Assembly: GCA_964468845.1 (NCBI GenBank)
Contig: CAYXWP010000001.1
Location: 6,411 to 70,410, forward strand
Origin: an uncultured Candidatus Saccharibacteria bacterium
Lineage (GTDB): Bacteria; Patescibacteriota; Minisyncoccia; Phycocordibacterales; PALSA-1337
Direction of reading: 5' to 3'
Length of the DNA stretch: 64,000 nt
The notes under the pieces are model-generated. The model had not been told where the DNA came from. It saw only the letters and a program-made list of their open reading frames with translations, and ran no database searches. This document shows positions 31,626-63,448 of the stretch, piece after piece (position 1 is the stretch's first letter; each line of letters begins with the position of its first letter). Position numbers and translations under genes: made by a program.

Positions 31626-31629
31626 AAAT

Positions 31630-32385
31630 CTATATATTTAAAATCAGTCTTATCTTCTTTTTTATTATAAAAATATAATATCTAAGATAACCAAAATAGA
31701 ACTTAACAATCAATGATGACTCCCTATAATTTTCTCTTTTCTGTCTTGAACTCACTCCATCTATTCCATAGACAGCAACGTCTCTATCTAAGTAACCAAT
31801 TCCTTTTTTTTGAATATAAAATTTACAAATCAGATCAAAGTCAGATGCAATTCTGTAGTTTAAATTAAATAAACTAAAATTAATAATTGATCTTCTATCC
31901 ATAAAAATTGCTTGATGTGGTGGTCTCCTACCAGCTTTTATATCTTTATAATTAAATATACCTCCAATCTTATTATAATCACCGCTCTTTGACATAAAAG
32001 TTACATTTCCATACAACATATCAATTTTTTGCGTTTTGTAATAATTCATCATATCTAAAATTGAATTATTGTCAGCAATAACGTCATCCGCCCCAAGAAA
32101 ATATATAACATCACCCTTTGACAGACTAACTCCTTTGTTCATCGCGTCATAGATACCACTGTCTGGCTCGCTTATTATACAATCGATTGAATCTTGGTAT
32201 TTATCTATAATACTTAGTGTCCCATCAGTAGATTCACCATCAACAATAATATATTCAAAATTTCTATAATTCTGATGTGCGACAGACTTTATTGTATTTT
32301 CAATGGTATCTTTGGCATTAAAGACAACAGTGATGATACTAAGAAAGGGTTTATCTATTTTTTTATTTTCATATCTTTTGTGCAT
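31630..32385 (-). CDS. Family 2 glycosyltransferase
   Basis: SIITVVFNAKDTIENTIKSV...YIIVDGESTDGT and DxD. Confidence 0.8.
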   Translation of the reverse strand: MHKRYENKKIDKPFLSIITVVFNAKDTIENTIKSVAHQNYRNFEYIIVDGESTDGTLSIIDKYQDSIDCIISEPDSGIYDAMNKGVSLSKGDVIYFLGADDVIADNNSILDMMNYYKTQKIDMLYGNVTFMSKSGDYNKIGGIFNYKDIKAGRRPPHQAIFMDRRSIINFSLFNLNYRIASDFDLICKFYIQKKGIGYLDRDVAVYGIDGVSSRQKRENYRESSLIVKFYFGYLRYYIFIIKKKIRLILNI

Positions 32386-33673
32386 TTTTTTTAAGAAGAA
32401 AATAATAATATGATATAAATAATATATCAGTAAGACATCTTATACCAACCGTAGCATATACTCCACCCATAAATCCAAACTTACTAATTAACATATATGT
32501 AAATGGGATATTGAGTATGCCGAATATAAGTAAGAAATACATATTAATCTTTGCGTGTCCTGTAGCAACACTGAAGCCAACAGAAACGACAGCTGCGACA
32601 GCTTGTGTAATTAACATAATTAGCATCACATAAAATGCATTAAAGAAAATTACAGCCTGATATTTAATTAATATGTACTTTAGAATGAAAGGTACAAGTA
32701 AATATGAAGCAATAGTTAAAATAATTGAAATAACAAATATTAATGTAAAGTATTGTTTAAATTTTTTATATATTTCACTGACTCTTCCACTAGCATACAG
32801 ACCAGTAATATCAGGTGAGATCACCTGAGCAAAAATCATAAATGGTGACACTAGAATTAGAAAAATTTTATTAATCAATTCGTAAAAACCAATTTCGGAT
32901 ATATAACCAAAGTGACCTAATAGAATCACATCTACTCTGCTATATACAAAATAACTTAGACTTATTACACCAAGAATTATAGAATATTTGCTAATATTTC
33001 TAATAACTGATAAATCAACTTTAATCTTCCATTCTCTTGGCCAATAGCCAATCAGAATAGCTAAAAAAAAGATAATTGAAAATACGTTATTAGCCCAAAG
33101 AGCACCAAACAATCCCCAAAAATATATAAGGGGTAAAGAAATAATTAATCCAATAATACCCGTAAATGCGGTTATAATTGATAGTTTTTTAAATAATTTT
33201 AACCCGCGATATATTCCTGTATAGATATAAGTTAACGGAAGAAAAATTAATGATGGAATTAAATTTTTTACAAATATGAACTCCTTTCCTAATAGAGATG
33301 GTCCAAATATTAATAATAACAAACTCAATAATATTAAAATAGATCCAACAAAAACCAACGTACTAAATGATAAATATTTTAGTTTGTCTTTATTAGTTTC
33401 ATTATACTCGGCAACATATTTTGATGTTGCAGTAGATACACCAAAATCTCCAAATAAAACAAGTAGCATCAATATGGCTACTGAATAATTATAAATACCA
33501 AAGTCATATGAATTTAATAACCACGCTGATATAAAAAATACACCCAATATAAACAGCTGTTTCCCTGATATTTGAATAAACTGCCAAAAAGTATTAGCTA
33601 GTGTTTTTTTATTATTTAAATATATTATTCTTATTTTGTTAATCATTTTTAATACGTTTATATAAGACTGCAA
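32369..33673 (-). CDS. Wzx-like oligosaccharide flippase (MOP superfamily, polysaccharide biosynthesis protein)
   Basis: 434 aa with 12-14 TM helices and the typical MOP-flippase hydrophobic profile. Confidence 0.6.
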   Translation of the reverse strand: MQSYINVLKMINKIRIIYLNNKKTLANTFWQFIQISGKQLFILGVFFISAWLLNSYDFGIYNYSVAILMLLVLFGDFGVSTATSKYVAEYNETNKDKLKYLSFSTLVFVGSILILLSLLLLIFGPSLLGKEFIFVKNLIPSLIFLPLTYIYTGIYRGLKLFKKLSIITAFTGIIGLIISLPLIYFWGLFGALWANNVFSIIFFLAILIGYWPREWKIKVDLSVIRNISKYSIILGVISLSYFVYSRVDVILLGHFGYISEIGFYELINKIFLILVSPFMIFAQVISPDITGLYASGRVSEIYKKFKQYFTLIFVISIILTIASYLLVPFILKYILIKYQAVIFFNAFYVMLIMLITQAVAAVVSVGFSVATGHAKINMYFLLIFGILNIPFTYMLISKFGFMGGVYATVGIRCLTDILFISYYYFLLKKNAQKI

Positions 33674-34598
33674 AGTTAGTTATGATTAACGATAAACCAT
33701 CCATCCATGGCTTAATTAATAAGCTTTGAAAAAATAAACCAGTTTGATGTGCAGATTTAATTGAGAAAAAAATTAATAATCCTCCACCAATCATGAAAAG
33801 CAGTAGTGAAAGCTTTGGAATATATACGCAACTTAATAATATTATTAAAAAATATATTATTGGTATATTAAAACGAAATAATACACTTAATGGGTCATTC
33901 ATACCCATTTTAATCATGGTTGCTCGCCCTAAAGAACCTTTAATCAATGTAGAAATATAATCTAGAAAAAATGATGTATTGTCATGAAAAATAAAAGTGT
34001 GAGGGTTATAAATAATATTATAATTTGATTTAAATATTCTTTCACAAAGCTCTTTATCCTCAGAGAAACGGGTAACATTTGATGTTGTTTGTAGTTTTTC
34101 GAGAAAATTACCTACTTTTTTTAGAACATTTTTTCGAATCGCGAGATTGCAACTAGGACATCCACGCATATATTTAAAATGTTTGAACCTAGGATACCCA
34201 TCTAATAGTGCAACTCCGAGATAGTTTGATATCCAAGTTACGTTAAATGGTAAAATCATGCCTATTCCAGCACCAGTTTTAGTATCTACGAAAGTTTCGT
34301 CATTACAAAAATTTAGATACTCAGAATCAATTTTTGTATCGGCATCAAGAAATAATAGAATTTCTCCTAATGATTTTTCTATTCCTAAATTTCTAGCCTC
34401 AGATGGCCCACTCTTAACTTCTAAAAATACTTTTATTGGATATTTTCTAGCTATGTTTATGCTTGCGTCATTAGAATTATTATCAACATAAATAATTTCG
34501 TATGCTTTTTTTGGATAATTTAATTTTAGACATGATTGAATACATCTATCTAAATTTTTTTCTTCATTATAACCACATATAATTATACTAAATTTCAT
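33639..34598 (-). CDS. Family 2 glycosyltransferase with C-terminal TM helices
   Basis: FSIIICGYNEEKNLDRCIQS...IIYVDNNSNDAS and the DAD motif. Confidence 0.75.
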   Translation of the reverse strand: MKFSIIICGYNEEKNLDRCIQSCLKLNYPKKAYEIIYVDNNSNDASINIARKYPIKVFLEVKSGPSEARNLGIEKSLGEILLFLDADTKIDSEYLNFCNDETFVDTKTGAGIGMILPFNVTWISNYLGVALLDGYPRFKHFKYMRGCPSCNLAIRKNVLKKVGNFLEKLQTTSNVTRFSEDKELCERIFKSNYNIIYNPHTFIFHDNTSFFLDYISTLIKGSLGRATMIKMGMNDPLSVLFRFNIPIIYFLIILLSCVYIPKLSLLLFMIGGGLLIFFSIKSAHQTGLFFQSLLIKPWMDGLSLIITNFAVLYKRIKND

Positions 34599-34599
34599 A

Positions 34600-35715
34600 T
34601 TATTTTATATACTTTTCAGCAATTTTTTTTAAATTAAATTGATTACTATATTTTATTATTTTTTCTCTATTAAAATAATTTTCGTTAAAAATAGTCCCTA
34701 TGTCTTTTATAGTCTGATCTATATTATTATATTCAATTAAAAAACCATTTGTATTATTTACTAAGTCAGCCTGTCCACCATTATTTGTTGCTACGATTGG
34801 TAGACCGACTTGCATAGCTTCCTGCAAGACAATTCCAAAACCTTCATGAACAGACGATAGAAAAAATATATCACTATTTTGTAAATATTGAAACTTTTTG
34901 TTTTGATCTATAAACCCAGTAAAGATTATCTTATTAGATATACCTAGTTTATAAGCTAAATTTTTTAATTGTTTCTCCTCTGGACCATCACCAATTATTA
35001 TTCCAATGACATTATTTGGTAATTTAGATATAACTTTAATAAAAAAATCAAAGCCTTTTCTTTTTACAAGCCTACCGACTCCGATAACATACTTTTTATC
35101 TACTTCCAAACCTATTTCTGATCTACTTTTTTTATCAAATGGCACCAACTCGTATGGTAGTGGGATAATCTGTATATCATTTTTAGGGTGATAATATTTT
35201 ATACAATTTTCCTTCGTATTTGAAGATTGGGCCACTATAGTATTGGCTCTATTTAAAAGGAAAGTAATGCATTTCCTTAAATACCAATGTAAGTGAGGCG
35301 AATTATTTTTAGTTGGATCATATATATCACCACCATGAAGAGAGACTATATTTTTAATATGAAATAGTCTTGCTAAAATATATCCAAGTGGGCCAGTAGG
35401 CACTACAAACTGGGTATTAATAAACTCATATTTATTCTTTCTACATAAAGATATCCCTTTCCACAACCCAGAAATTGGATAACAGAGCATGGAAATAGTT
35501 GTGGCGGTAGATAATTCCTTTCTGCCAAAAACTTTTACTCTATATACATTAATACCATCAATAATCTCAAACTTTCTTAATCCTTTATACCATGTAGTAA
35601 TGTAGTCTACCTGATAACCAAGTTCTACAAAACCTTTTGCTAATTTATGAGCAGCAACACCTCCTCCCCCACCAAGTGGTGGAAATTCATAGTTTAGGAC
35701 TAATATCTTTTTCAT
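34600..35715 (-). CDS. Family 4 (GT-B, group 1) glycosyltransferase
   Basis: N-terminal GGGGGVAAH and the C-terminal EGFGIVLQEAMQVGLPIVAT (E-x7-E region). Confidence 0.8.
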   Translation of the reverse strand: MKKILVLNYEFPPLGGGGGVAAHKLAKGFVELGYQVDYITTWYKGLRKFEIIDGINVYRVKVFGRKELSTATTISMLCYPISGLWKGISLCRKNKYEFINTQFVVPTGPLGYILARLFHIKNIVSLHGGDIYDPTKNNSPHLHWYLRKCITFLLNRANTIVAQSSNTKENCIKYYHPKNDIQIIPLPYELVPFDKKSRSEIGLEVDKKYVIGVGRLVKRKGFDFFIKVISKLPNNVIGIIIGDGPEEKQLKNLAYKLGISNKIIFTGFIDQNKKFQYLQNSDIFFLSSVHEGFGIVLQEAMQVGLPIVATNNGGQADLVNNTNGFLIEYNNIDQTIKDIGTIFNENYFNREKIIKYSNQFNLKKIAEKYIK

Positions 35716-36677
35716 TATTTTATTAGAATCTCTCTCACTCTATATCTCCTCTCATGTTTCGATGTATTGAATCGAATACCAATAAGTAGATCAATTACAA
35801 TACCGAAACTAAATAATATTATACCAGCAATTATTAGAAATGCTGTTATGAAGAAGAGGCCGTTTCTGTTGAACCCAAGGCCCATAAATATTTTTTCATA
35901 AAGAGTCCAGAATCCTGCTACGAATCCAAAGAAGAAACATGTGATACTTGCGTAGCCAAAAAGGTGCAGAGGTCTTTGTGAATATTTCTGTATAAACCAA
36001 ATATATACTAGGTCGATAAAACCTCGTATTGCTTTACTGCAATTATATTTACTCTTACCAACTGTCCTTGGGCGATGATTCACTACCAATTCACCAATTC
36101 TAAAACCTTTCCATTTTAAAATAGCTAGAATATAACGATGCATCTCACCTCCTATATCTAGACAATCAACTGCCTCCTTTGTATAAACTCGAAGCATACA
36201 CCCACTATCATGAACAATATCACCTATAAGTATTCGGCGAAGTATACGGCCAATACGTGTAAGAATATTAATACTAGAGCTATCCATTCTCTTCTTTCTC
36301 CATCCAGCAACTACATCTAGGTTCTCTTTTATTAGCTTATCAAAAAGGAGTGGTATATCAGCTGGATCATTCTGACAATCGCCATCCATAGTTACTACAT
36401 ACTTGCCAGTACAAGCTCTAAAACCAGCGTCTAAGGCTGTTGCTTGACCATAGTTACGGTTTAGATTGATGATCTTCGCATTACTTAGTGTATTGAGCTC
36501 TGTTAGGGTTTCATCAGTACTACCATCATTCACATAAATAACTTCGTAATCTCCTGAAATATCAGACAAAGATGTTTTTATTTCCTGATCTAGTCTACTA
36601 ATATTCCCTGCTTCATTATATATAGGGACCACAATAGACAGTCTTTTTCCTGTATTTTCCATAAAAATACTATACAT
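35715..36677 (-). CDS. Polyprenyl-phosphate glycosyltransferase (GT2; GtrB / ArnC / DPM1-like)
   Basis: LSIVVPIYNEAGNI...VIYVNDGSTDET and DGD, plus two C-terminal TM helices characteristic of Und-P-sugar synthases. Confidence 0.7.
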   Translation of the reverse strand: MYSIFMENTGKRLSIVVPIYNEAGNISRLDQEIKTSLSDISGDYEVIYVNDGSTDETLTELNTLSNAKIINLNRNYGQATALDAGFRACTGKYVVTMDGDCQNDPADIPLLFDKLIKENLDVVAGWRKKRMDSSSINILTRIGRILRRILIGDIVHDSGCMLRVYTKEAVDCLDIGGEMHRYILAILKWKGFRIGELVVNHRPRTVGKSKYNCSKAIRGFIDLVYIWFIQKYSQRPLHLFGYASITCFFFGFVAGFWTLYEKIFMGLGFNRNGLFFITAFLIIAGIILFSFGIVIDLLIGIRFNTSKHERRYRVREILIK

Positions 36678-48306: not shown

Positions 48307-48780
48307 ATGCAAAAGAAATGTGATCACACAAGTGTAGGAATGCTTGTTTGGAAGGATGAAAAACTTCTATTAATAGAGAGGAGGAAGTTTCCCTTTGGCT
48401 TCGCGATACCTGCTGGACACGTTGATGGGGATTCAACATTTGAGGACGCAGCAATACGAGAACTGAGAGAGGAAGTCGGCTTGGATTCTATCAATTTAGA
48501 ACCTGTTTATGATATAAAAAAAGAAAATCCATGCAGACGCGAGGACGGGACCTGGCATCACTGGAAAATATTTAAAACCGAAATTATTGGAGAGGGGGAA
48601 TTGAAACGTAGTGAAAGCGAGACGAAACAAGCAAATTGGTTTGATAAAGATCAAATACGCGCATTAGCTGAAAAAACTGCGAGATATTTTGATAAAAAAA
48701 TATCTGACGAGGAATGGGAGAAGAGTCCTGGGCTTGAACCAGTGATGTACGAGTTTTTCAAGGAATTAAAAATTATATAG
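48307..48780 (+). CDS. NUDIX hydrolase
   Basis: Nudix box GHVDGDSTFEDAAIRELREEVGL. Confidence 0.75.
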   Translation: MQKKCDHTSVGMLVWKDEKLLLIERRKFPFGFAIPAGHVDGDSTFEDAAIRELREEVGLDSINLEPVYDIKKENPCRREDGTWHHWKIFKTEIIGEGELKRSESETKQANWFDKDQIRALAEKTARYFDKKISDEEWEKSPGLEPVMYEFFKELKII

Positions 48781-49208: not shown

Positions 49209-49349
49209 GTTATTTATTTTGTTTATTAGTTACTAATGTTAAGTATAATTTAGCATAATAATAGCATAATTTGAATATCAATAAAAAGAAAACCCACCTT
49301 GCGGAGGGTCGTGTGCAACAAACGAATGGCGAAAGCAAACTGCTGGGGG

Positions 49350-49685
49350 TTAATTAAGAACAGCTGAATCAACCCGAGCAATCTCTCTCCAGTAAAATGC
49401 TGGGAATACCCATCCACGCCTTGGAATTGAATAGAATGGTTTACGTTCTTGAAGTAGATAGTTGATCGCGCTTTCAAAATTGCCAGGTGCAAGTGGATCT
49501 TGAATCCAAAAACGAGGGTTGCTTCTTGCTGAAAGTAATGTAACAGTCGGAATACCGACATCAATATTTTCAGCAATTTCTCCAAAAAGAATACACGGCT
49601 CTCCATCCCCCAATGGAACACAGAGAATTGTGCAATTACTCGCAGCACATCGATGAGCCTCGATAATTTTAGTGAGATCAATCAT
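49350..49685 (-). CDS. Hypothetical protein (111 aa), GC-rich
   Basis: Preferred over the overlapping Leu-rich alternative frame 49250..49681. Confidence 0.3.
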   Translation of the reverse strand: MIDLTKIIEAHRCAASNCTILCVPLGDGEPCILFGEIAENIDVGIPTVTLLSARSNPRFWIQDPLAPGNFESAINYLLQERKPFYSIPRRGWVFPAFYWREIARVDSAVLN

Positions 49686-49861: not shown

Positions 49862-50326
49862 TCAACTCCAGAGCCCATTTTTTAATTCCTCCCTAATTTC
49901 CATCCAAATTTTCCCGATGTGATTTAAGCCCTCACCATCTATCCCATCATCCCAAAAGCCATCACCTGGTGGATAAGTCACGATATGCTTCACAATTTTT
50001 ACATCTCCAGAATTAATTAATGCTTTTATCACCTCTTCATGTTGCACGGCCTTAAGTTTCATAAGCTTCTTCATTACTAGGAGTTTATATTCTTCACTTT
50101 TAAATTCTGGAATTTGCAAATGCTTATATTTTGTAGAAACCTCCCAAGCCTTCACTGGGCTATGTGCATTAATAATTTCACTCCTTATTTTCTGATCCGT
50201 ATACCTTTGACATTGATATGCATGCTCTACAGTAGGATAAACAACGCCATCAATCTCTATCGCATGCGCCGTGTATGGTGAAAAATATATGTAAAATATT
50301 TCTAAAGGTAAAATTTCATTTTTCAT
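49862..50326 (-). CDS. NADAR (YbiA/DUF1768) family protein
   Basis: FYIYFSPYTAHAIEIDGVVYPTVEHAYQCQRY...GDGFWDDGIDGEGLNHIGKIWMEIR. Confidence 0.7.
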   Translation of the reverse strand: MKNEILPLEIFYIYFSPYTAHAIEIDGVVYPTVEHAYQCQRYTDQKIRSEIINAHSPVKAWEVSTKYKHLQIPEFKSEEYKLLVMKKLMKLKAVQHEEVIKALINSGDVKIVKHIVTYPPGDGFWDDGIDGEGLNHIGKIWMEIREELKNGLWS

Positions 50327-51598: not shown

Positions 51599-52144
51599 CT
51601 ATTTTAATAAATCATCTGGCGTTGATAAATCATAACCCAATTCCTTTGCTCTAAGCGCAGATTTTTTCAAAAAATAGACCCAATGATCGTAATCCTTGTT
51701 CTCATTATGTGCTATCCAACTAGAAAGAATGTCCTCTGCACTTACCCAATCGAGTGTAAACCTTTCGTGATCCTCTAGTTTGGTATCCACTAGTTTTCTA
51801 CTTTTTAATATTACAAGAAAACATGTAGCCATTGCTGACCTGTTTACATTCTTTAAAACATTATGAAAATGTGTAAACACTTTAGCAATTTTCTCAACGC
51901 ACAGAAAATCATACAGGCCACTTTCTTCAACAACTTCTCTCAAAACGCCCTCCTGAATATCTTCTTTATCGCTAACCCCACCAGAAAAAAGTATGTACCT
52001 ACCCCTTTTTATTTGATCACCAACTGCATACTTTTGTGTTTCTGGATCAAAGACAACAGCACATCCGCCATCGCGACGCTCCTCATTTTCTCGCTTAATT
52101 CCAAATTCTAGAATGCCATCTAAAGTCATGTAGCTATTATACAC
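51599..52144 (-). CDS. NUDIX hydrolase (divergent)
   Basis: Nudix-like GGVSDKEDIQEGVLREVVEESGL. Confidence 0.5.
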   Translation of the reverse strand: MYNSYMTLDGILEFGIKRENEERRDGGCAVVFDPETQKYAVGDQIKRGRYILFSGGVSDKEDIQEGVLREVVEESGLYDFLCVEKIAKVFTHFHNVLKNVNRSAMATCFLVILKSRKLVDTKLEDHERFTLDWVSAEDILSSWIAHNENKDYDHWVYFLKKSALRAKELGYDLSTPDDLLK

Positions 52145-52728: not shown

Positions 52729-52916
52729 GTTTGTATATATATTATATTTATTCTAATAATAGGCGCCAGTTATAGTACGAAGCTGGAGGGGTTTTTGTTA
52801 CGGGGGGGATATGTAAAAGGGTTATTTATAGGATTCATCATTACATCATAAAATGAATTCTAAAATAAAATCCCCACCACGTTGAACCGTAGTGAGGAGA
52901 TGAAACAACCGCAACT

Positions 52917-54221
52917 TCAATCAATCGCGCCCGAAATGGAATTGGTCGCCTTATCGCCAATATCATGTCGCATCTGCTTGCCATTGAAATGGATTTCGTT
53001 GGCAGCAGCATAAGCACGTTTCTTAGCTATATGAAGATTTTCTCCCCAAGCAGTGACTCCTAGGACTCGTCCCCCATTGGTACCAAACATCTGGCCCATG
53101 CGCTTAGTCCCAGCATGAAAGATTTTGACATTGTCCATTTTGGATACTCGATCGAGCCCCCAAATCAACTGATCGTTACTTTGCCCTTTCGGATACCCCT
53201 TTGAGGCAAGCACGATGCAGACCGAGGCACCCGGAAACCAGTCCAATTTAACATGGCTGGAACCGCCGTCCGACGAGCATGCATATAGAACTTCAAACAG
53301 ATCGGAGCCAAGCCTGGACAGATATGCTTGAGCTTCCGGATCACCAAAGCGGGCATTAAATTCGAGAACCTTCAAACCCTTGTCCGTGAGCATAACCCCT
53401 GGATAGAGTAAACCTCGATAATCGATACCTTCTGTTACGCATCCATCATGCCAGTGTGCAATTATATCCTCATTGATTTTCTTGAGTAGCCCATTGTGAA
53501 CAAATGGCGTGGGAAAATATGCACCCATACCGCCTGTCATGGGACCTTGATCACCATCAAGAAAATGCTTATGATCTTGAGAAGTCGGAAATAGATACAC
53601 GTTCCTCGCGTTGCAAAGAATGTGAAGTGAGATCTCTGTTCCAACAAGCCGTTCCTGTATAAGAATTGGAGAGTCCGGCTTATTCGCAAACTTAGCATCA
53701 ATCATCTCAATGGCCTCCTCAATGAAATCTGGTAAACTCACACCCTTGCCCCTACATAATCCATCAGATTTAATGACACATCGCCCACCAAGTTTTTCAA
53801 CGTAATGTTTTGCAGGTTCTGGGTCGCTAAACACTTCCCCATTTGGCGATGGAATACCATAACGCTTCATGAAGTTGTGAGAATAAACCTTGGATGACTC
53901 AAGTTGTGCAGCCTTCTGATTTGGTCCGAATATGGCAAACTTTTTCCTTGCAAAGAGATCCGCAATACCGATTGCAAGCGGATCGTCAGGACCGACAACA
54001 GTCAGTGTTGGTTTCTTCTCACAAGCAAAGCTAAAAAGTCGTGGCAAATCTGTGACCTTAATACCAACGCATTGCACGGAATTGCCGTTCTTCAGTCGCT
54101 CTTGTGCTATACCAGGATTACCTGGAGCACACCACAGTTCCGTAACTTGTGGTGATTGTGCCAATGACCACACTAACGCATGTTCCCTACCACCTCCGCC
54201 AATAACCAGTACAGTGCTCAT
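52917..54221 (-). CDS. purD: Phosphoribosylamine--glycine ligase (GAR synthetase), copy 1; GC-rich
   Basis: MSTVLVIGGGGREHALVW and an ATP-grasp domain with LEFNARFGDPE. The start is trimmed to the Met at 54221 because the track's N-terminal extension is AT-rich leader. Confidence 0.9.
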   Translation of the reverse strand: MSTVLVIGGGGREHALVWSLAQSPQVTELWCAPGNPGIAQERLKNGNSVQCVGIKVTDLPRLFSFACEKKPTLTVVGPDDPLAIGIADLFARKKFAIFGPNQKAAQLESSKVYSHNFMKRYGIPSPNGEVFSDPEPAKHYVEKLGGRCVIKSDGLCRGKGVSLPDFIEEAIEMIDAKFANKPDSPILIQERLVGTEISLHILCNARNVYLFPTSQDHKHFLDGDQGPMTGGMGAYFPTPFVHNGLLKKINEDIIAHWHDGCVTEGIDYRGLLYPGVMLTDKGLKVLEFNARFGDPEAQAYLSRLGSDLFEVLYACSSDGGSSHVKLDWFPGASVCIVLASKGYPKGQSNDQLIWGLDRVSKMDNVKIFHAGTKRMGQMFGTNGGRVLGVTAWGENLHIAKKRAYAAANEIHFNGKQMRHDIGDKATNSISGAID

Positions 54222-54295
54222 AATTTTATTTCCTTTCGAAGAACATTCACCATTGACTATACTGATTTTTAGCAAAAAAACAACCGATAGAAAAC

Positions 54296-54844
54296 TTACT
54301 CCACCAATGTAATCCTTGGCCACCTTTCCTTCCACTTCTTTTTTTCCATCCTTTCTTTGATTACATCTATCCTATCTTTAAAAACTGGACTCGGTCTTAC
54401 AATAAAATTTACAAGGTCACTTATCCCATGTGGGGCAACTAAGACCAAGTTGCCATTTTTATCCATGCTCACACCTACCGCAGTAGCTGTCTCTGGCCAC
54501 TTTGAAATTGCATCTTCAGTTGATGTATATGGAGATAAACCATTCCACTTATTTGCATAGAATTCGTTTACAACTTCCCATTCAATTCCAGTCTCCTCTT
54601 GAAGCTTGGTAGACAATTTTTTATCCGCCTCCTCGTCATTACCGTTTGGATCAAAATATACCAAATCGATGTCAGTAATATCGGCAGTTGTATTCTCAAT
54701 CCCTGACAAATGATTCCATATTTTACTTCTCACAAAGCCAGCACCGATAACCCAATCGGGTAAATTTAGTGTAGAAGCAATTGTAATAATTTTCATCATC
54801 CATTCGTCTTGTTTTATTAAATTGTGTATGTCTTGTTCGGTCAT
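54296..54844 (-). CDS. Nucleotidyltransferase-family protein (NTP_transf_6 / DUF925-like)
   Basis: WVIGAGFVRSKIWNHL...DIDLVYFD. Confidence 0.5.
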   Translation of the reverse strand: MTEQDIHNLIKQDEWMMKIITIASTLNLPDWVIGAGFVRSKIWNHLSGIENTTADITDIDLVYFDPNGNDEEADKKLSTKLQEETGIEWEVVNEFYANKWNGLSPYTSTEDAISKWPETATAVGVSMDKNGNLVLVAPHGISDLVNFIVRPSPVFKDRIDVIKERMEKKKWKERWPRITLVE

Positions 54845-54984
54845 AAATATACGCTTTCTATTATATCAAACCTATAAATTTAATCCTTGCATTTTCTACA
54901 TCAAAATGTAACATTACTTTTAGACACCTTGAGTGAGGTGTGCATTAGCAAAAATACGAAAAAACTAACCAAAAAGGAGGAGCT

Positions 54985-56475
54985 ATGGCTCACATCCCTC
55001 AGTCAGTACTTGAAAAACAAGCAGTTATCGAAGGCCTCAGTCTGCGTGGTCGTGGAAAAGTTCGCGAATCGTATGACCTGCTCGGGCATCCAAACGAAAT
55101 GCTAGTGGTGGCATCAAACCGCTGTAGCATCTTCGATTTTGTTTTACCAGCCTTGGTCCGCCTTAAAGGAGAAATCCTGACGGCGATGAACCACTTTTGG
55201 GTGACGAATGTCATCGGTGAAATCTTTGAAACCGACCTCGTCGCCTGCGGATCCGGCGTGGATCTGTTTCTGCCAGAGGGTCTGCGTGGTAATGCGGAAC
55301 TTCAGAAGCAAGCCACGGTGGTGAGAATTCTCCCCGCTCCAGACGTTGAGGACGTCGTACGTTTTATCCTCACTGGAGGTGGTTGGGAAAGCTACAAGGC
55401 AACGCAAAGCATCTGTGGGCATCGCTTTCCGAATGGCCTCAGTGATGGAAGCAGGCTTCCATTTCCAGTTTACACCCCAACAACGAAAGCGGCCGTCGGT
55501 CATGATGAACACATCACTGCCGACAGTGTCGCCGAACGTTATGGTGTAAAACGCGAAAGGATGTCTCTGCAGGTAGCTGGGCTTATCGCAAGTTACGCTG
55601 CCAGTCGTGGAATTATTCTCGCAGACACCAAGTTTGAGTTCAGTCTGAGCAATGGGAAGTTGATTTTGGCGGATGAAAAAGGAACCCCGGACTCGAGCCG
55701 ATTCGTCGACAAGGCGACCTGGGAAAAACTCGCGTCAAAGGGCAAGTTTCCGCCCTCACTCGACAAACAATACATTCGTGATTGGGGCATCAAAGCAGGG
55801 GTCAAAATACGAGATCCCCGTAAAGCTGAGGATCTAGCCTTTGTTGACTCGCTTGAAGTGCCGGAACGAGTCACAGATATGACCACCAGCATTTACCGCT
55901 ATGTCTTCTGGAGGCTGACCGGCAAGCAAATCGAGTATTATCAGCGTGACATCTTGGGAATCGCCATGCAGACACCCACACGACGCAAGATCCATGTCGT
56001 GGTCGGAAGCGAAAGCGACTTACCGCAAATTGTCAGGGGGGTTGATTCCATGCGAGTTGTTGCTGACGTGGGTGTAAGCGCCATCAGTTGTCATCGCAAC
56101 CCGGATGAACTGCGACGTTTCGTTCGTGATGAACTAACCACGACTGATGTAGTCATCGCCGGCGCTGGGAAAGCTGCAGCATTACCTGGAATTATCAAGA
56201 GCTACTTGTGCGAACTCGGCAGCCATGTGCCAGTCATTGGTGTTGCCCTTGATTCTGAAAACAGGAAGGACAATGATGCAGCAATATATTCGATTGAATG
56301 CTTGCCAGGGCAACCTGTCGAACTTGATGCCGACGGCAATGCCTATTTCGGCCCAATCGGTTTCATGAAGGCTTGTAGTGCCGCTTCGTGGGATGAGTTC
56401 CTCCCGAAGGCAGTCGAACACAAACCTGCGAAAATCCATATCGAGGGGCAACTTGGGCGGTCTTATCCCCACTAA
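54985..56475 (+). CDS. Bifunctional SAICAR synthetase (PurC) / N5-CAIR mutase-type PurE fusion protein; GC-rich
   Basis: The N-terminal about 300 aa carry PurC motifs (RGRGKVRESYDL, SNRCSIFDF, FWV). The C-terminal about 170 aa carry PurE motifs (HVVVGSESDLPQ, SCHRNPDEL, IAGAGKAAALPG, PVIGVAL). The AGAGxAAxLPG form is class I-like. Confidence 0.8.
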   Translation: MAHIPQSVLEKQAVIEGLSLRGRGKVRESYDLLGHPNEMLVVASNRCSIFDFVLPALVRLKGEILTAMNHFWVTNVIGEIFETDLVACGSGVDLFLPEGLRGNAELQKQATVVRILPAPDVEDVVRFILTGGGWESYKATQSICGHRFPNGLSDGSRLPFPVYTPTTKAAVGHDEHITADSVAERYGVKRERMSLQVAGLIASYAASRGIILADTKFEFSLSNGKLILADEKGTPDSSRFVDKATWEKLASKGKFPPSLDKQYIRDWGIKAGVKIRDPRKAEDLAFVDSLEVPERVTDMTTSIYRYVFWRLTGKQIEYYQRDILGIAMQTPTRRKIHVVVGSESDLPQIVRGVDSMRVVADVGVSAISCHRNPDELRRFVRDELTTTDVVIAGAGKAAALPGIIKSYLCELGSHVPVIGVALDSENRKDNDAAIYSIECLPGQPVELDADGNAYFGPIGFMKACSAASWDEFLPKAVEHKPAKIHIEGQLGRSYPH

Positions 56476-56514
56476 GAACCAGAACCGTTCCTGATACTAA
56501 TCACTTGCAACAAT

Positions 56515-56548
56515 CCAGCGTATGAAAATACGCTGGTATTTTATTTTC
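56515..56548 (+). terminator. Intrinsic terminator of the purC-purE gene
   Basis: Perfect ccagcgtat / atacgctgg stem with a GAAA loop, then TATTTTATTTTC. Confidence 0.6.
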
Positions 56549-56638
56549 ATAATAAATTTACTCCCATTAAATTTGCCAAAATTAATAATTCATGATATTT
56601 TGCTAAGCAGTCTGAACCTTACCAACCAAGGCACCACT

Positions 56639-57205
56639 ATGTTTATCGAATCCATCGACCGCTGGCTACTTACTAACGTTTTTCAGAAGTTCTCCAACTG
56701 GTTTCAAAGACTTACTGGCAAAGACAACTTCTTTCTTGCTAATGTCTGCATATTCATGGAACTGACTTGCAGCATAATCCGATCGATTTATATAAAGAAA
56801 GATGTTCGCTTCATTGTGATCACTTCTGATTTCGTGTTCGCTATTATATTTTTTTTCACGGTGAAGCTAATAAGAATGCGTCATAAACAAATGTCCATTA
56901 AGTCAATGGGAATGAACCCTTTGGCGATAAGCCCAGGAAGTATTTTGATGAGAGTGATTGGTGTAGTTATAGTATTTACTGGGATCATCAAATTCTTTGT
57001 GGATTTGAAAATGCATGGAGGTATTCCAACAGATACTCTGATCAAGTTTGTGTTTGAACAGGCTGGATCAGGATTTATGGTATCAGCCTTCTATCTGATA
57101 GCTTGCACTCCACTACCACCTCAGAAAGGTAAGATCAGCGAGTGGCTAACTAACTTAGGGGAATCCCTCGCGAACAGAATGTCCCCAGTGCCAGAGCCGG
57201 TGTGA
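56639..57205 (+). CDS. Hypothetical multi-pass membrane protein
   Basis: The track's ORF starts at 56522, inside the terminator hairpin. The Met at 56639 (MFIESIDRW) is the more plausible start. 4-5 TM helices. Confidence 0.35.
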   Translation: MFIESIDRWLLTNVFQKFSNWFQRLTGKDNFFLANVCIFMELTCSIIRSIYIKKDVRFIVITSDFVFAIIFFFTVKLIRMRHKQMSIKSMGMNPLAISPGSILMRVIGVVIVFTGIIKFFVDLKMHGGIPTDTLIKFVFEQAGSGFMVSAFYLIACTPLPPQKGKISEWLTNLGESLANRMSPVPEPV

Positions 57206-57221
57206 GGTGATCGAAGCACAG

Positions 57222-57270
57222 CGTGCCAGAGCCATCGTCAGGGAGAAATTCCTCACGATGGTTTTATTTT
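57222..57270 (+). terminator. Imperfect hairpin plus long T-run
   Basis: ccatcgtcagggag-aaatt-cctcacgatgg followed by TTTTATTTTTTATTT. Confidence 0.4.
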
Positions 57271-57449
57271 TTATTTATCTTAAATTAATTGTCATTTAGT
57301 CTCCCTTCTCGTCTTCCAAATTATAGGAAACATCGGAACGATACATAGATACCACGTAGTTACTCTGATCAGTTTTGAAGTGGTTTCTATTTCAGTTTTC
57401 CAATATAGACCTATCCACAAATCTTGTCTTACAAATTTTATTTTCATAC

Positions 57450-57785
57450 TTAAAATAAGTTTCCACCAATAACTGATATAGCCTTATCAGGCGTGATTAA
57501 TACAACATTACCATCTTTATCAGGAACTCCAAGTGTCAAAACTTCTGATTCAAAAAGTCCAATTTTTCGAGAAGGAAAATTAACAACACCCAAAACCAAC
57601 TTGCCAATAAGTTCTTCCTTTTTATAGAGTGCGACAATTTGCGCAGAGGAGTTTTTAACACCAATCTCAACACCAAAATCTATCCTAAGTTTATATGCCG
57701 GTTTCTTTGCTTCAGGAAAATCATTCACTTCAATTATTTTCCCCACCCGAATATCTATTTTTTTGAAATCTTCAATGGTTGCCAT
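57450..57785 (-). CDS. tRNA-binding protein (CsaA / Trbp111, OB-fold Myf domain)
   Basis: FKKIDIRVGKIIEVNDFPEAKKPAYKLRIDFG...SAQIV..Y..EELIGKLVLGVVNFP. Confidence 0.75.
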   Translation of the reverse strand: MATIEDFKKIDIRVGKIIEVNDFPEAKKPAYKLRIDFGVEIGVKNSSAQIVALYKKEELIGKLVLGVVNFPSRKIGLFESEVLTLGVPDKDGNVVLITPDKAISVIGGNLF

Positions 57786-57790
57786 GTTAT

Positions 57791-58444
57791 TTAATTAAGT
57801 ATTATATATTTACCTTCACTAATTACATCGACCATGCCATCAACAATTTTTAGCGCTGACTGATCATCAAGAGCATAAATCTTCTTAGGTAGTGTCTTAG
57901 CGACCTCTCTAATCGTGTCCTCCATACGTATTGGGTAAAATGGAGAATTAAGGTGGGGTAAAAAGTAAAAATCAACATAATTCAATCCATCCATAGGCTT
58001 CTCCCCTATATCATCTCCATAAATTATTTGTGACAATCTCAAAGCAAGATCTGGATTAGTCACCATACTGCCTGCACTTGACCCTACATATACTTTTGTC
58101 TTAATAAACTCAGGGAGAATATTGATAAGTCCAGATTTATTTATCCACCTCATTAAGTGATAGGTATTACCACCTTCAAAATACAAAATATCCGCTTCTT
58201 CCAACTGTGGTCTCCAAATACTTTCTGAAACCGCAGAAATATCCACAATATTTACTGATTTAAAATTTTGTTTATAAATATTATTAAGGTCTTTTATAAA
58301 CCATTCTTTGTTACCCATTTCAACATTTGAAGCTGTCGGAATAAAAGCAATTATTGTATCATTGAGTTCTTTCCCAACTAAGTCAAAAAGTGCTTTTGAA
58401 ATTGACTTGTTTGTAAGCCCTGATGAGGTTAGAAGAAATTTCAT
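57791..58444 (-). CDS. Peptidase S51 (dipeptidase E / type 1 glutamine amidotransferase-like)
   Basis: ADILYFEGGNTYHL...YVGSSAGSMV. Confidence 0.65.
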   Translation of the reverse strand: MKFLLTSSGLTNKSISKALFDLVGKELNDTIIAFIPTASNVEMGNKEWFIKDLNNIYKQNFKSVNIVDISAVSESIWRPQLEEADILYFEGGNTYHLMRWINKSGLINILPEFIKTKVYVGSSAGSMVTNPDLALRLSQIIYGDDIGEKPMDGLNYVDFYFLPHLNSPFYPIRMEDTIREVAKTLPKKIYALDDQSALKIVDGMVDVISEGKYIILN

Positions 58445-58445
58445 A

Positions 58446-58943
58446 TTACTTAATTAATAAATTAATAATACTATGTAGAGACGTAACATATTTATCAGGA
58501 TAATTTTTCATATCAAGAAGAAGATCATCTTTATTAATCCATTTAATTTGCTCGACTTCATCCTCTTGAATAACAAATTGCTCAATGGATCTATCTATCT
58601 CACAAAGAAACCACTGACCAAAATATTTTCTTGGCGATACAGAGTGTTGTTTCGGACCTAATTCTAATTTTATACCTGTTACTCCAATTTCTTCCTCAAG
58701 TTCTTTATACGCATTTGACTCGTATGTCTCTCCTTCTTCAACAGTTCCGGCAGCAGCAGGTCCCCACTTTCCTGGATCCTTACTTTTTGTAAATTTCCTC
58801 TGAGCGATTAGTATTTCACCTTGAGAATTGACCAACCAAATACCAGTACATCTATATGTTTCTTTTAAATAATCCACTTCATCACGATATTTTGTTCCCA
58901 CTGGAACATCATTATCATCTACGATAACTACCTTCTTTTTCAT
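58446..58943 (-). CDS. NUDIX hydrolase (IDI-like architecture)
   Basis: Nudix box AAGTVEEGETYESNAYKELEEEIGV. Confidence 0.65.
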   Translation of the reverse strand: MKKKVVIVDDNDVPVGTKYRDEVDYLKETYRCTGIWLVNSQGEILIAQRKFTKSKDPGKWGPAAAGTVEEGETYESNAYKELEEEIGVTGIKLELGPKQHSVSPRKYFGQWFLCEIDRSIEQFVIQEDEVEQIKWINKDDLLLDMKNYPDKYVTSLHSIINLLIK

Positions 58944-58956
58944 AAGTCTAATATTA

Positions 58957-59631
58957 TCACATTTTCTTAGCTAAACTCACTATAGTAATTTTCTTTACTT
59001 TATCAACATGTTTGTAACCTAAATCTATTTTTGCATCAGAATTCTGTATGTCCCCATACATCAAATTTTCAAAGCCGTTGTCAGTTAAAATATTGTACAT
59101 TTCCCATTTTGTCTTTATAAAATTAGATACAACAACTGAATTCTGTTTACACCCCAATCTCACTGGTATAACTGTGTTTATTAGGCTTTCTGATCCCTTA
59201 GCAACATCATACGCACTAAATGTCGACAGCAAAATTCCGTCTCTCTTTAAGACTCTTTTAATTTCTAATATTGGTTTTATGTATTCATCAAAATGATGGA
59301 AAACAAAATTTGAAAAAACTATATCAATTGAACCATCTTCAATTGGCATATTAGCCCCATCAGCCACAACAAATTTTACATTTTTATATTTTTCACTTAA
59401 ATTATTACCCGCCAACTTAATCATTTTCTGACTATTATCAATTCCAGTAACAGACTTGGCACCCAATTGAGATAAAATCAGAGAGTACCTACCATCTCCA
59501 CAACCAAAATCAAGAATATCCTTACCTTCTAAACCAATTTTACCAATCAAAGAAAAAACTAGCTCATCCGTCGCAATAAAATCACCTCTATTTTTTGAAT
59601 AATCATCTGAAAGCTTATCTGAGTATTGCAT
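58957..59631 (-). CDS. Class I SAM-dependent methyltransferase
   Basis: ILDFGCGDGRYSLIL motif I and an acidic motif II. Confidence 0.75.
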   Translation of the reverse strand: MQYSDKLSDDYSKNRGDFIATDELVFSLIGKIGLEGKDILDFGCGDGRYSLILSQLGAKSVTGIDNSQKMIKLAGNNLSEKYKNVKFVVADGANMPIEDGSIDIVFSNFVFHHFDEYIKPILEIKRVLKRDGILLSTFSAYDVAKGSESLINTVIPVRLGCKQNSVVVSNFIKTKWEMYNILTDNGFENLMYGDIQNSDAKIDLGYKHVDKVKKITIVSLAKKM

Positions 59632-59639
59632 AAAAATTT

Positions 59640-60098
59640 TTATTTTTCCCAGTTATCTATTAACTGATTAACAATCTTGGCGTTATTTTCTATAAGATCA
59701 TGAGTTATTTTTTTATAGTAACCCACAAGTTCTTCAGCTTTATATTTGTTAATGTTAAAATTTAATTGCAATTGAAAATATGGTTCCCTCTTAATTTCAT
59801 CTTCTATCTTATCTAGATCATAATTATTACGAAAGCTAGATAAACCATACAACTCAATTCCCGACATATTTTTCAATAAATTAAATAGGTTACCACTCCA
59901 GGAATCTGATTTAATGATGAATACAAAATATACTTCATCTCCGTAAGAACCTATTTCACAATATTCTGTAGTTAAAGTAGGTATACCTATCTCTATCGGT
60001 TTATCACTTTTATCATAATTCCCTTTAGTTATTTCCTCAAAAGTCACGACGCCAGAACTTTCCAATTTATTTTTTATTTCTTTAATTATATCTGCCAT
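59640..60098 (-). CDS. Hypothetical protein
   Basis: ORF only. Confidence 0.3.
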   Translation of the reverse strand: MADIIKEIKNKLESSGVVTFEEITKGNYDKSDKPIEIGIPTLTTEYCEIGSYGDEVYFVFIIKSDSWSGNLFNLLKNMSGIELYGLSSFRNNYDLDKIEDEIKREPYFQLQLNFNINKYKAEELVGYYKKITHDLIENNAKIVNQLIDNWEK

Positions 60099-60163
60099 AA
60101 TTTATATTATATATCATCCGTAGCTTCTATTACATTATTAATTAAAATAATATATTAATTCTC

Positions 60164-60199
60164 TACAAAAACGCACCTGTAGCCGGAGCTACAGGTGCG
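60164..60199 (-). terminator. GC-rich intrinsic terminator of purD copy 2 (bidirectional)
   Basis: Perfect 12-bp cgcacctgtagc / gctacaggtgcg stem with a cgga loop, and T-runs on both sides. Confidence 0.6.
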
Positions 60200-60228
60200 A
60201 GTGTTTTTCAAACGAGGAACGATCTTTG

Positions 60229-61524
60229 TCAGTGGACCGCCAAGGACTTGGCACCGATATCTTTCCGATACTGTGCACCTTCGAAGTCGATGCACTCCAC
60301 ACCGTTGTAAGCGTGATCGAGTGCTTCCTGTAGCGTTGCACCGATGCCGGTGACACCGAGGACACGTCCGCCAGATGTGACGAGATGGCTATCAGTTTGC
60401 TTGGTACCTGCATGGAACACGACGACGCCAGGAAGAATCTCGGCGTTATCGATGCCTGTGATCGGCAGACCTTTTTTGTAGTTAGGCGATGGGTAGCCAC
60501 CGGACGCCATTACAATGCAGGCAGCGAAGCCCGGATTCCACTCGACGTTGATCTCATGGAGTCGTCCTTCGACGCACGCCTCCAAGATGTCGAGCAGATC
60601 TGTTTTCAAGAGACACATGTAAACCTGTGTCTCCGGATCGCCGAATCGCGCATTGAACTCGAGGACCATGGGTCCCGCTTCTGGCATCTTGAGTCCGGGA
60701 TAAAGCAAACCGACGAACGGCGAGCCTTTTTCGCGGAGCCCGCTAAGAATTGGGCCGATGATCTGTTCACTCACCGCATTGTGGTCTTTGAACCACGGGA
60801 CCGGAGCAATCGTACCCATGCCACCGGTGTTCGAACCATCGTCGCCATCGAATGCCGGCTTATGATCCTGCGCTGACGGAAACAGCTTGAACGACTTGCC
60901 ATCGCAGAACGCATGGATAGACACTTCCTGTCCGCCTACATATTCTTCGATGATGACCTCATCGCCAGCGCTTCCATGAAGGTGCTTCACCATGACCTCG
61001 TCGAGAGCCTGTTCAGCTTCGGTAAAATCACGGCAGACGTACGCTCCTTTTCCGAGAGCGAGACCTGATGCCTTCACGACAATCGGTAGTCCAAAGTACG
61101 TAGCAAAATGCCTGCGCACGTCCTCGAGGACTTGAGTGTGGTCCGTGTAAACATCGAACAATGCTGTCGGCACGCCGCAATCTTTCATGAGACGTTTCGA
61201 GAACACCTTCGATGCCTCGATTTGAGCCGCTGCCTTGGTGGGACCGAAGATGCGAAGGCCTTTTGCCTGAAATGCATCCACGATGCCGAGTGCGAGCGGA
61301 TCGTCTTGGCCGACGATAGTGAATTCGATCCCTTCCTTGAGTGCGAAGGCTAAGAGGCCGTCAACGTCCGTAGCTTTCACTGGAACGTTTTCTGCGATCT
61401 GAGCCGTGCCAGCATTACCTGGAGCGACGAAGAGTTTGCCGAGTCGGGGGGATTGGCGAAGTTTCCACGCAATTGCGTGTTCACGGCCGCCACCTCCGAC
61501 CAGTAGGACTTTCATTTGGTTCAT
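60229..61524 (-). CDS. purD: Phosphoribosylamine--glycine ligase (GAR synthetase), copy 2; strongly GC-rich
   Basis: MKVLLVGGGGREHAIAW and an ATP-grasp domain with LEFNARFGDPE. AAGGAG lies 8 nt upstream of the ATG. Roughly 40-45% identical to copy 1 by eye. Confidence 0.9.
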   Translation of the reverse strand: MNQMKVLLVGGGGREHAIAWKLRQSPRLGKLFVAPGNAGTAQIAENVPVKATDVDGLLAFALKEGIEFTIVGQDDPLALGIVDAFQAKGLRIFGPTKAAAQIEASKVFSKRLMKDCGVPTALFDVYTDHTQVLEDVRRHFATYFGLPIVVKASGLALGKGAYVCRDFTEAEQALDEVMVKHLHGSAGDEVIIEEYVGGQEVSIHAFCDGKSFKLFPSAQDHKPAFDGDDGSNTGGMGTIAPVPWFKDHNAVSEQIIGPILSGLREKGSPFVGLLYPGLKMPEAGPMVLEFNARFGDPETQVYMCLLKTDLLDILEACVEGRLHEINVEWNPGFAACIVMASGGYPSPNYKKGLPITGIDNAEILPGVVVFHAGTKQTDSHLVTSGGRVLGVTGIGATLQEALDHAYNGVECIDFEGAQYRKDIGAKSLAVH

Positions 61525-61700
61525 GATCTTGTCTCCTTTTTTTGTGAGAGGTTCAGGTGAGTACTTTAAGCCGTACCCTTAGCTTGCCGAAGTACATCGA
61601 CTCTGGAGCAATATTAGCCGACAATTGACATAAAATCAAATTTGTTGAGCTACTGTAGGTCGAACCAAATTGTATAAACCATACGTCCTTTTTTTTATAA

Positions 61701-62782: not shown

Positions 62783-63448
62783 TTATCCCAAATGGGTATG
62801 GTCGTTGTAAATCCAAAGTCTCCAACTATCCTCCTGTCCAAAACTTGATTGGTAACGGATAACCGTAATGCCAGTATTTTCCGTATGTGCGCTCTTTTGA
62901 AATTTAAAGAATATTTCTTCAGACAGTGAATCACCGACAAGTATCCGGGCAATCAATGTACGCAAGAAAAATCCATGAGTAATTACAACAATTGATTGTT
63001 CTGATTTGTCCTGCAGAAATTTAAGTGCCTTATCAGCGCGTTTTAAAATATCATCAAAATTTTCTCCGTCAGAAATACGCATGCCTGAGATATATAAACT
63101 CTTCTCCCATTCATTCCAAATATCATTTGCCACCTTATCCTCATGAGGTTTACCATTTATAGAAGTTGGCTTCACCCTTTCGACAAATAGATTTGAAAAT
63201 TCATACGTTTTCCCAGTAGCTTTAGCAATAAAGTCGGCAGTTTCTTTCGCCCTTTCTAATGGACTTGTGATTAAGACATCGAATCGTAATTTAGCTATTC
63301 TCTTTGCTATAGACTCTGCTTGTTTTTTGCCAAGCATGCTAAGTGGAGAATCGGGAGATTGGAATACAGAAGTAGCATTATGTTCGCTCTGTCCGTGACG
63401 AATAAAATAAACTATCTTTTTGATATTTTTATCAAGTTTGACATTCAT
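62783..63448 (-). CDS. Histidine phosphatase (phosphoglycerate mutase-like) family protein
   Basis: VYFIRHGQSEHN catalytic RHG motif and a downstream His. Confidence 0.7.
   Translation of the reverse strand: MNVKLDKNIKKIVYFIRHGQSEHNATSVFQSPDSPLSMLGKKQAESIAKRIAKLRFDVLITSPLERAKETADFIAKATGKTYEFSNLFVERVKPTSINGKPHEDKVANDIWNEWEKSLYISGMRISDGENFDDILKRADKALKFLQDKSEQSIVVITHGFFLRTLIARILVGDSLSEEIFFKFQKSAHTENTGITVIRYQSSFGQEDSWRLWIYNDHTHLG

Follow-up and report, generated by a model that had tools for sequence, protein, structure and literature searches.

Acquired genes and islets whose atypical GC content ameliorates in a new host are familiar from the concept of Lawrence and Ochman, and the lateral acquisition of such GC-atypical genes is a well-known kind of event. 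Patescibacteria (the Candidate Phyla Radiation, CPR) are usually described as nucleotide scavengers, and 93% of their genomes have been reported to lack de novo nucleotide synthesis (preprint, doi 10.64898/2026.06.21.733656). Here we describe a 64,000-nucleotide stretch of contig CAYXWP010000001.1 (the window), derived from groundwater metagenomes (PRJNA292723), in which three GC-rich genes for purine synthesis lie in an AT-rich genome of this phylum: purD1 (52917-54221, minus strand), a purC-purE fusion (54985-56475, plus strand) and purD2 (60229-61524, minus strand). We consider it fairly probable that the three encode intact purine enzymes that were laterally acquired through three separate histories. 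The twist that they add to the well-known kind of event is modestly new on two points. GC-rich pur modules of low synonymous divergence (dS) recur across AT-rich Patescibacteria, and a phylum-wide PurC-PurE fusion parallels the animal enzyme PAICS.

In several respects the locus resembles ameliorating acquired islets, with a foreign GC content at third codon positions (GC3), sharp boundaries at gene edges, and a phylogeny or a divergence that conflicts with that of neighboring genes. The GC3 of purD1 is intermediate (0.41) between a donor-like 0.71 and the 0.29 of the host, and purD2 shows net GC-to-AT synonymous change. Unlike typical islands, the pur islets of the window have no integrase, tRNA target or flanking repeats; unlike multi-gene islands, they are single genes, each with its own leader and terminator; and unlike the usual foreign islets, two of the three would have their source within the host's own phylum. 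Measured against canonical bacterial PurD, PurC and class I PurE, the encoded proteins share the domain architectures, the folds and key motifs, but differ in the fusion of PurC to PurE, in a divergent PurE-like domain whose AAHLPG loop has lost its conserved His to an Ala throughout the family, and in the presence of two PurD genes of different ancestry within one small genome.

Composition of the purine genes and integrity of the contig

The gene content of the window is typical for Patescibacteria/CPR and includes a dcw cluster (MraZ, MraW, PBP and a Mur ligase), MreB and MreC, together with a short ProRS (415 aa), a short DnaX-like protein (354 aa), FemAB, DUF192, many small NUDIX genes and a very AT-rich glycosylation island. 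The names attached to homologs of its proteins are Patescibacteria, Parcubacteria or Paceibacterota. Judged by this content, and by an overall GC of 36.3%, the host is an AT-rich Patescibacteria genome.

Composition was compared across 73 open reading frames (ORFs) of at least 90 aa, namely 70 background ORFs and the three pur genes. The background has a mean GC3 of 0.301 (standard deviation 0.075), against which purD1 stands at 0.414 (z = 1.5), purC-purE at 0.519 (z = 2.9) and purD2 at 0.595 (z = 3.9; rank 1 of 73). In round figures, all three are compositionally atypical for the host, with GC3 of 0.41, 0.52 and 0.60 against 0.30 +/- 0.075. All three also lie above every one of the 24 background ORFs of at least 300 aa (0.169-0.363), so that their GC3 can indeed be told from that of their neighbors, a comparison that an earlier note on this DNA had proposed. 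In a 200-nt sliding profile, the three longest islands of at least 45% GC (52860-54273, 54911-56569 and 60135-61668) are the three pur genes, which bears out that note's central observation of GC-rich islets in an AT-rich genome. Its figure of about 50 to 55% GC for all three holds for purC-purE (51.6%) and purD2 (54.9%) and is too high for purD1 (46.4%); the first 100 nt of purD2 are 56% GC, near a hand count of 54%. A jump in GC placed exactly at the start codons was likewise correct for purD1 only, where the step is sharp, since it is gradual at purC-purE, and the purD2 island reaches about 140 nt into a leader of 42-48% GC. Amino-acid composition was considered as a cause of the GC excess and rejected, because GC3 itself is raised, not GC1 and GC2 alone, and other conserved enzymes lie at 0.25-0.30; BipA, SerRS and MreB in the window reach only 0.25-0.27.

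Abrupt compositional changes in a metagenome-assembled contig could also arise by artefact, through chimeric assembly or contaminating GC-rich DNA in a CPR contig. The order purD1, NTP_transf_6, purC-purE was, however, recovered independently from three samples and by two pipelines (assemblies L001-L004), which excludes a chimera. Each islet is, moreover, a single gene with AT-rich CPR genes on both sides, and CPR relatives of purD2 and the fusion gene show the same pattern on other long contigs. An artefactual origin therefore has a negligible probability.

By tblastn, neither the 64-kb window nor a 9-kb extension of it (L001) gave a match to purL, purN, purM, purB, purH or guaA, and a Pfam scan of the window ORFs, which covered all but a few of 90-255 aa, gave no further pur domain, in agreement with the earlier note. 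A purK gene, whose product (N5-CAIR synthetase) works together with class I PurE, was likewise not found in either the window or the relatives' loci that were examined. A search against Rfam found no known RNA or riboswitch between 52.5 and 62.3 kb, the pur leaders included.

Two purD genes of different ancestry

Both purD genes encode phosphoribosylamine-glycine ligase (GAR synthetase) proteins in which GARS_N, GARS_A and GARS_C are all full length. On the equivalog model TIGR00877, with a cutoff of 288 bits, PurD1 scores 427 and PurD2 488. Their most likely predicted role is the conversion of phosphoribosylamine and glycine to glycinamide ribonucleotide. As the earlier note had held, the two are homologous and moderately similar, with 41% identity.

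For purD1, an ATG start at 54221 is preferred over a GTG at 54335, because the homologs are 433-435 aa long and the GC content falls exactly there. A terminator-like hairpin lies just 3' of the stop codon (52871-52898, minus strand), with an 11-bp stem containing 6 GC pairs and a T-rich tail, although it is a match to the consensus only. Just two close homologs were found, with 75% and 71% identity, on the CPR-like contigs L172 and L173. From there matches fall to 57% identity, and all named ones at and below that level are from Verrucomicrobiota, whereas identity to CPR-type PurD is 42%. In a neighbor-joining tree of just two families, the CPR-type and a Verrucomicrobiota set, PurD1 and its two close homologs join the Verrucomicrobiota set in 200 of 200 bootstraps. 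A representative donor-type purD has a GC3 of 0.71 in a genome of 56% GC. The dS of purD1 against both L172 and L173 is saturated, and since synonymous sites are saturated among all three, the transfer would be old. These observations fit a Verrucomicrobiota-like xenolog that entered the ancestor of a small CPR clade by an old inter-phylum transfer and is now largely ameliorated. The purD1-type gene adjoins a tRNA_bind gene in L173 and lies inside the S10 ribosomal operon in L172. In the latter contig (5369-16868), this gene and MacB/ABC transporter, EamA, DKNYY and NYN genes split the S10 operon between L3 and L4.

A different picture is given by purD2, a CPR-type gene whose best matches are 86-90% identical and, where named, from Patescibacteria. 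The region 60167-61693 of the window, which comprises leader, coding sequence and terminator, aligns by blastn to L090 (82%) and L175 (78%), while the flanks beyond it do not align, so that the same edges are seen in three different genomic contexts. The 3' edge is an intrinsic terminator (60172-60199, minus strand) with a perfect 12-bp stem containing 8 GC pairs followed by TTTTTGT, as the earlier note had recognized; the hairpin is kept in L090 and L175, and homology ends right past it. The 5' edge is formed by a conserved leader or promoter region (61525-61693, minus strand; 42-48% GC near the gene) of about 170 nt, which includes a TTGATT box and has 78-82% nucleotide conservation with the solo purD cassettes of L090 and L175. 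The predicted fold of this leader is no more stable than that of shuffled sequence (z = -1.05), the surroundings of purD2 contain only short repeats at chance level in place of a transposon-like structure, and the viral contigs scanned with PurD2 gave no match. Orthologs stand alone in L090 and L175 and within purL-purN-purD(-purM) clusters in L088, which comes from the same sample as the window but a different organism, and in L174. Among the PurD2 homologs is a 744-aa PurD fused to a methyltransferase domain (protein P0220).

The divergence of purD2 is best judged against other genes shared by the same genome pairs, which are tRNA_bind, PII-like, methyltransferase, abhydrolase, LactB3 and MreB. 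Protein identity is 83-90% for the PurD2 type and 45-84% for every other shared gene. Where residues are identical, the codons are identical as well in a fraction of 0.59-0.69 against 0.36-0.48, and dS is 0.66-0.98 against values of at least 1.85 or saturation. For instance, the window and L175 share 83% identity in PurD but only 45% in MreB, an incongruence at the protein level that selection on synonymous sites does not explain. The dN/dS ratio (nonsynonymous to synonymous divergence) of about 0.06-0.11 indicates strong purifying selection on purD2. Taken from these comparisons, purD2 would be a cassette of about 1.5 kb that was recently transferred within the phylum.

A PurC-PurE fusion native to the phylum

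The purC-purE gene (54985-56475, plus strand) encodes 496 aa, with a SAICAR synthetase domain at about residues 1-320 and a class-I-like PurE domain at about residues 330-480. The first of these scores 156 bits on PF01259 (SAICAR_synt; gathering score 20), but it misses the NCBIfam equivalog cutoffs (229 bits against 251 for NF010568, the best model, and 103 against 190 for TIGR00081), which can be attributed to the fused architecture and the divergent sequence. The second matches PF00731 (AIRC) with 54 bits against 30, over positions 1-107 of the 148 in the profile. The AlphaFold model, for which 32 homologs were used, reached a predicted local distance difference test (pLDDT) score of 93 and a predicted template modeling (pTM) score of 0.91. 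When compared by Foldseek, its N-terminal domain superimposes on yeast and M. abscessus PurC with template modeling (TM) scores of 0.79-0.86 and 31-34% identity, and its C-terminal domain on E. coli PurE with a TM score of 0.68, a root-mean-square deviation (rmsd) of 2.5-2.7 A and 32-33% identity.

Class I PurE enzymes are marked by the motifs GSxSD, SAHR(T)P, with the catalytic His45 (E. coli numbering), and AGGAAHLPG. The 32 fusion homologs retain GSESD and SCHRNP; G, S, S, D and N do not vary among them, H and R hardly do, and SCHRNP presumably contains the equivalent of the catalytic His. In the third loop, AGAGxAAALPG, an Ala stands where the His would be. The C-terminal domain is probably a divergent, class-I-like PurE. 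The fusion would most likely convert N5-carboxyaminoimidazole ribonucleotide (N5-CAIR) or aminoimidazole ribonucleotide (AIR) to carboxyaminoimidazole ribonucleotide (CAIR), and this in turn to succinylaminoimidazolecarboxamide ribonucleotide (SAICAR). Its neighbors in relatives, purB and purH in L087 and guaA in L005, support a role in purine synthesis. Downstream lies a terminator-like hairpin (56515-56536, plus strand) with a 9-bp stem containing 5 GC pairs and a T-rich tail, whose last bases overlap the start of an unannotated ORF (56522-57205).

More than 120 full-length homologs of the fusion were found, with 47-65% identity. Because every named one belongs to Patescibacteria, Parcubacteria, Paceibacterota or Buchananbacteria, the fusion is, on this sampling of homologs, native to the phylum and not foreign to Patescibacteria. 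Apparent PurC-PurE fusions in Clostridia were rejected, as purE and purC are adjacent but separate ORFs there. A profile search of genome contigs with the fusion alignment returned, among the matches listed, mostly ordinary PurC, and the viral contigs scanned with it gave only distant plain purC, with at most 39% identity over the main matches. Identity to L085 is 63% for the fusion against 47% for MreB, which is suggestive of a divergence incongruent with that of host genes. We found no description in the literature of a PurC-PurE fusion in CPR.

Among the closest described systems is animal PAICS (PDB 2h31, 6yb8 and 4ja0), which is a whole-chain Foldseek match of the model and has the same two activities that are predicted here, with PurC at the N terminus and PurE at the C terminus. 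However, identity is only 14-18% and the whole-chain rmsd 13-15 A, meaning that the domains are arranged differently. The N-terminal domain of the fusion resembles instead the long PurC of yeast and mycobacteria, and its C-terminal domain is nearest to class I PurE (N5-CAIR mutase; 33% identity to E. coli; SCHRNP). The PurE domain of PAICS, in contrast, has what we take to be class II motifs, SAHK and AGRSNGLGP. Low identity, a large rmsd and a class-I-nearest PurE do not point to common descent, and the bacterial fusion probably arose independently of PAICS.

Purine genes as possible exchangeable modules in Patescibacteria

The pattern seen in the window is not confined to it. Twelve related loci were compared for their pur genes (purD, purL, purN, purM, purCE, purB, purH and guaA), and in nine of them the GC3 of these genes lies above the flank median by 0.11-0.31 (by 0.14-0.31 in the eight with CPR-type genes). 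In the remaining three, L085, L086 and L172, which have GC-richer hosts or the old purD1 type, it equals that of the flanks. Neighboring CTP synthase, RF1, RuvB, EPSP synthase and MreB in the relatives have a host-like GC3 of 0.24-0.31. The pur cluster of L174 belongs to a GC island of about 9 kb, with a host-like gene right before its abrupt start and an integrase gene after it. This island (5150-15371) carries purL-purN, a divergent purD-purM, a TrpR-like gene and a 335-aa protein of unknown family before the phage-type integrase, and the host-like gene preceding it is a Lactamase_B_3 gene 70% identical to one on the window's contig. In L087 (10001-15012), a GC-rich purCE-purB-purH block ends directly at tRNA-Ser(gga), and tRNA genes are a classic site of island integration. 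As in the window, pur genes are scattered in other Patescibacteria rather than gathered in one operon, and the related contigs show a minority of the phylum with clustered pur genes. We found no description of GC-rich pur genes in CPR in the literature.

These comparisons change what the earlier note had concluded from the window alone. Independent horizontal acquisitions are favored by the foreign composition and separate origins of the three genes, although only purD1 appears to come from outside the host lineage. Accordingly, a search for best matches outside that lineage succeeded for PurD1 (Verrucomicrobiota, 57%), but those of PurD2 and the PurC-PurE protein lie inside the phylum. As a general description, the notion of isolated purine steps is not supported, as relatives have the same gene types in purL-purN-purD(-purM) (L088, L174) and purCE-purB-purH (L087) arrangements, nor are GC-rich pur genes peculiar to this genome.

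In a history that would accommodate these data, a small CPR clade would owe its purD1 to an ancient capture by its ancestor from a high-GC, Verrucomicrobiota-like donor; the gene would since have drifted most of the way to host composition. The CPR-type purD2 would be a recent arrival in AT-rich Patescibacteria that are only distantly related, passed among them as a leader-gene-terminator cassette, and would still be decaying towards AT. For the purC-purE gene, from a phylum-wide fusion family, a move inside the phylum is probable too, with a GC-richer lineage as its source. Each gene would be transcribed separately, as a small unit ending at a terminator of its own, and the pur genes of the sampled relatives would be mobile modules of patchy occurrence whose GC content exceeds that of their AT-rich hosts.

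Alternatively, the genes may have been inherited vertically, and selection or biased gene conversion acting on synonymous sites (through codon choice, mRNA stability or a recombination-linked GC bias) would keep GC3 high and dS low. This explanation, which we hold to be unlikely, gains from the recurrence of GC-rich pur genes in many AT-rich Patescibacteria, from the similar GC3 (0.52-0.61) of five purD2-type genes, and from the hint of an old shared locus that is given by the proximity of purD to tRNA_bind in the window, L090 and L173. The synonymous changes themselves speak on both sides. When third-position changes are polarized with five taxa, counting only those unique to one terminal, GC-to-AT changes outnumber AT-to-GC changes by 9:2 on the window branch and by 43:20 over the four AT-rich hosts (p = 0.005 against 1:1); the GC-richer setting of L174 gives 10:11. 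With three taxa, however, the window branch is balanced at 19 GC-to-AT to 20 AT-to-GC, far from the neutral expectation (p = 1e-5), which would fit selection holding GC3 high. The five-taxon count is taken as the better one, because parallel GC-to-AT changes probably inflate the AT-to-GC class when only three taxa are used. Vertical descent under synonymous-site selection also has to contend with the conflict between PurD and MreB, which lies beyond synonymous sites, with the low GC3 (0.24-0.30) of BipA, MreB and SerRS in the window and of RF1, RuvB and CTP synthase in relatives, with the pur genes that match their flanks in L085, L086 and L172, and with the different contexts of the pur cluster in L088 and L174, the latter adjoined by an integrase.

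Lateral acquisition of three intact enzymes has its own difficulties, to which the balanced three-taxon count belongs. Purely neutral decay would be expected to give about 4.5:1, and even the 43:20 ratio falls short of this (p = 0.008); some GC-favoring force, be it selection or biased conversion, may act on purD2-type genes. Relatedness of the hosts was judged from a handful of shared genes, not a species tree, and the PurD tree, as said, spans two families. No integrase, tRNA or flanking repeat was found at the three islets within the window. For the fusion, the PurE domain scores 50.6 bits on the NCBIfam purE model TIGR01162 against a cutoff of 149.6, and its third loop reads AGAGxAAALPG throughout the family, with an Ala that we take to replace His75 of class I PurE. 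Its nearest relative is just 65% identical, too distant for the time or direction of a transfer to be inferred.

A further possibility, the remnant reading of the earlier note, is that the organism is a scavenger that has lost the rest of its purine pathway and in which the three genes persist without function or with a new one. The lack of any other pur gene in the window and its 9-kb extension would agree with this, as would the reported 93% of Patescibacteria genomes lacking de novo nucleotide synthesis, the redundancy of two purD copies, and the occurrence of purD2 alone in the window as opposed to its company of purL, purN and purM in L088 and L174. Nevertheless, all three frames are intact and full length, both PurD proteins score above the equivalog cutoff, purD2 is under strong purifying selection, the catalytic motifs of the fusion are conserved, and each gene has kept its own terminator. 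Solo purD cassettes are conserved in L090 and L175 too, and scattered pur genes are found in other Patescibacteria as well. A mere remnant is for these reasons quite improbable, and from the intact frames, the selection on purD2, the kept motifs and the private terminators we argue that the three genes are in use.

Other features of the region may be mentioned here. A small gene with a tRNA_bind domain lies within 1-3 kb of purD in three genomes (57450-57785 in the window, 12383-12727 in L090 and 8106-8441 in L173), beside a PurD2-type gene in the first two and a PurD1-type gene in the third. This proximity may be coincidental, or it may be what is left of an old locus that they shared. A metagenome scan for synteny by way of tRNA_bind met surroundings too rearranged to show clean insertion sites, and L095 and L099, whose tRNA_bind is 83% identical, have no pur gene within 10 kb. 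Genes for nucleotide house-cleaning or modification, namely three NUDIX, NADAR, HIT, histidine phosphatase and NTP_transf_6, lie mostly around the pur genes (7899-8348, 48307-48780, 49862-50326, 51599-52144, 54296-54844, 58446-58943 and 62783-63448), with HIT far upstream at 7.9 kb; the NTP_transf_6 nucleotidyltransferase is directly upstream of purD1 on the same strand. Two LeuRS genes of related Patescibacteria (L085, 11535-15134, and the P0138 locus) contain additional domains, one gene a Ham1p-like insertion and the second abhydrolase, Ser_hydrolase and NUDIX insertions. Opposite to the pur genes in composition is a very AT-rich glycosylation island (27180-36677; ORFs of 23-29% GC, GC3 0.17-0.23), which contains three GT2 genes, one GT4, a Polysacc_synt flippase, a PMT_2-like protein and two large ORFs with no Pfam match. 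Four other moderately GC-rich ORFs with a GC3 of 0.48-0.56 (4192-4572, minus; 4823-5530, plus; 13757-14257, minus; 49250-49681, minus) have no Pfam family and, in the two regions searched, no Rfam match, and may be further acquired genes or spurious ORFs; that at 4823-5530 begins with a signal-peptide-like stretch. Next to the dcw cluster lies a protein with an ORF6N/Rha-like phage regulatory domain (22929-23504, minus strand).

If lateral acquisition is taken as the starting point, a broader view can be put forward, tentatively, in which de novo purine synthesis is a mobile accessory trait of Patescibacteria with source-sink dynamics. Lineages with a higher GC content and a fuller metabolism would retain pur genes stably, and AT-rich reduced lineages would repeatedly gain, and later lose, cassettes or islands such as purD, purL-purN-purD-purM and purCE-purB-purH. 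Wherever an AT-rich genome has pur genes, these would then be GC-rich and of recent evolutionary origin, and the phylum-specific PurC-PurE fusion, convergent with animal PAICS, would belong to the mobile set. The alternative, a gene-specific constraint favoring GC at the synonymous sites of pur genes, would also be new. If, as the patterns of GC3 and dS suggest, the minority of Patescibacteria with pur genes gained them repeatedly by transfer, biosynthetic independence would be a fluid, exchangeable trait and not a property of lineages, and little about ancestry could be read from whether a genome has pur genes or lacks them. Such acquisitions can be found cheaply by their GC3 contrast. Finally, the PurC-PurE fusion is an apparently independent second invention of the PAICS architecture, and it may serve as a bacterial model for substrate channeling between the two steps.

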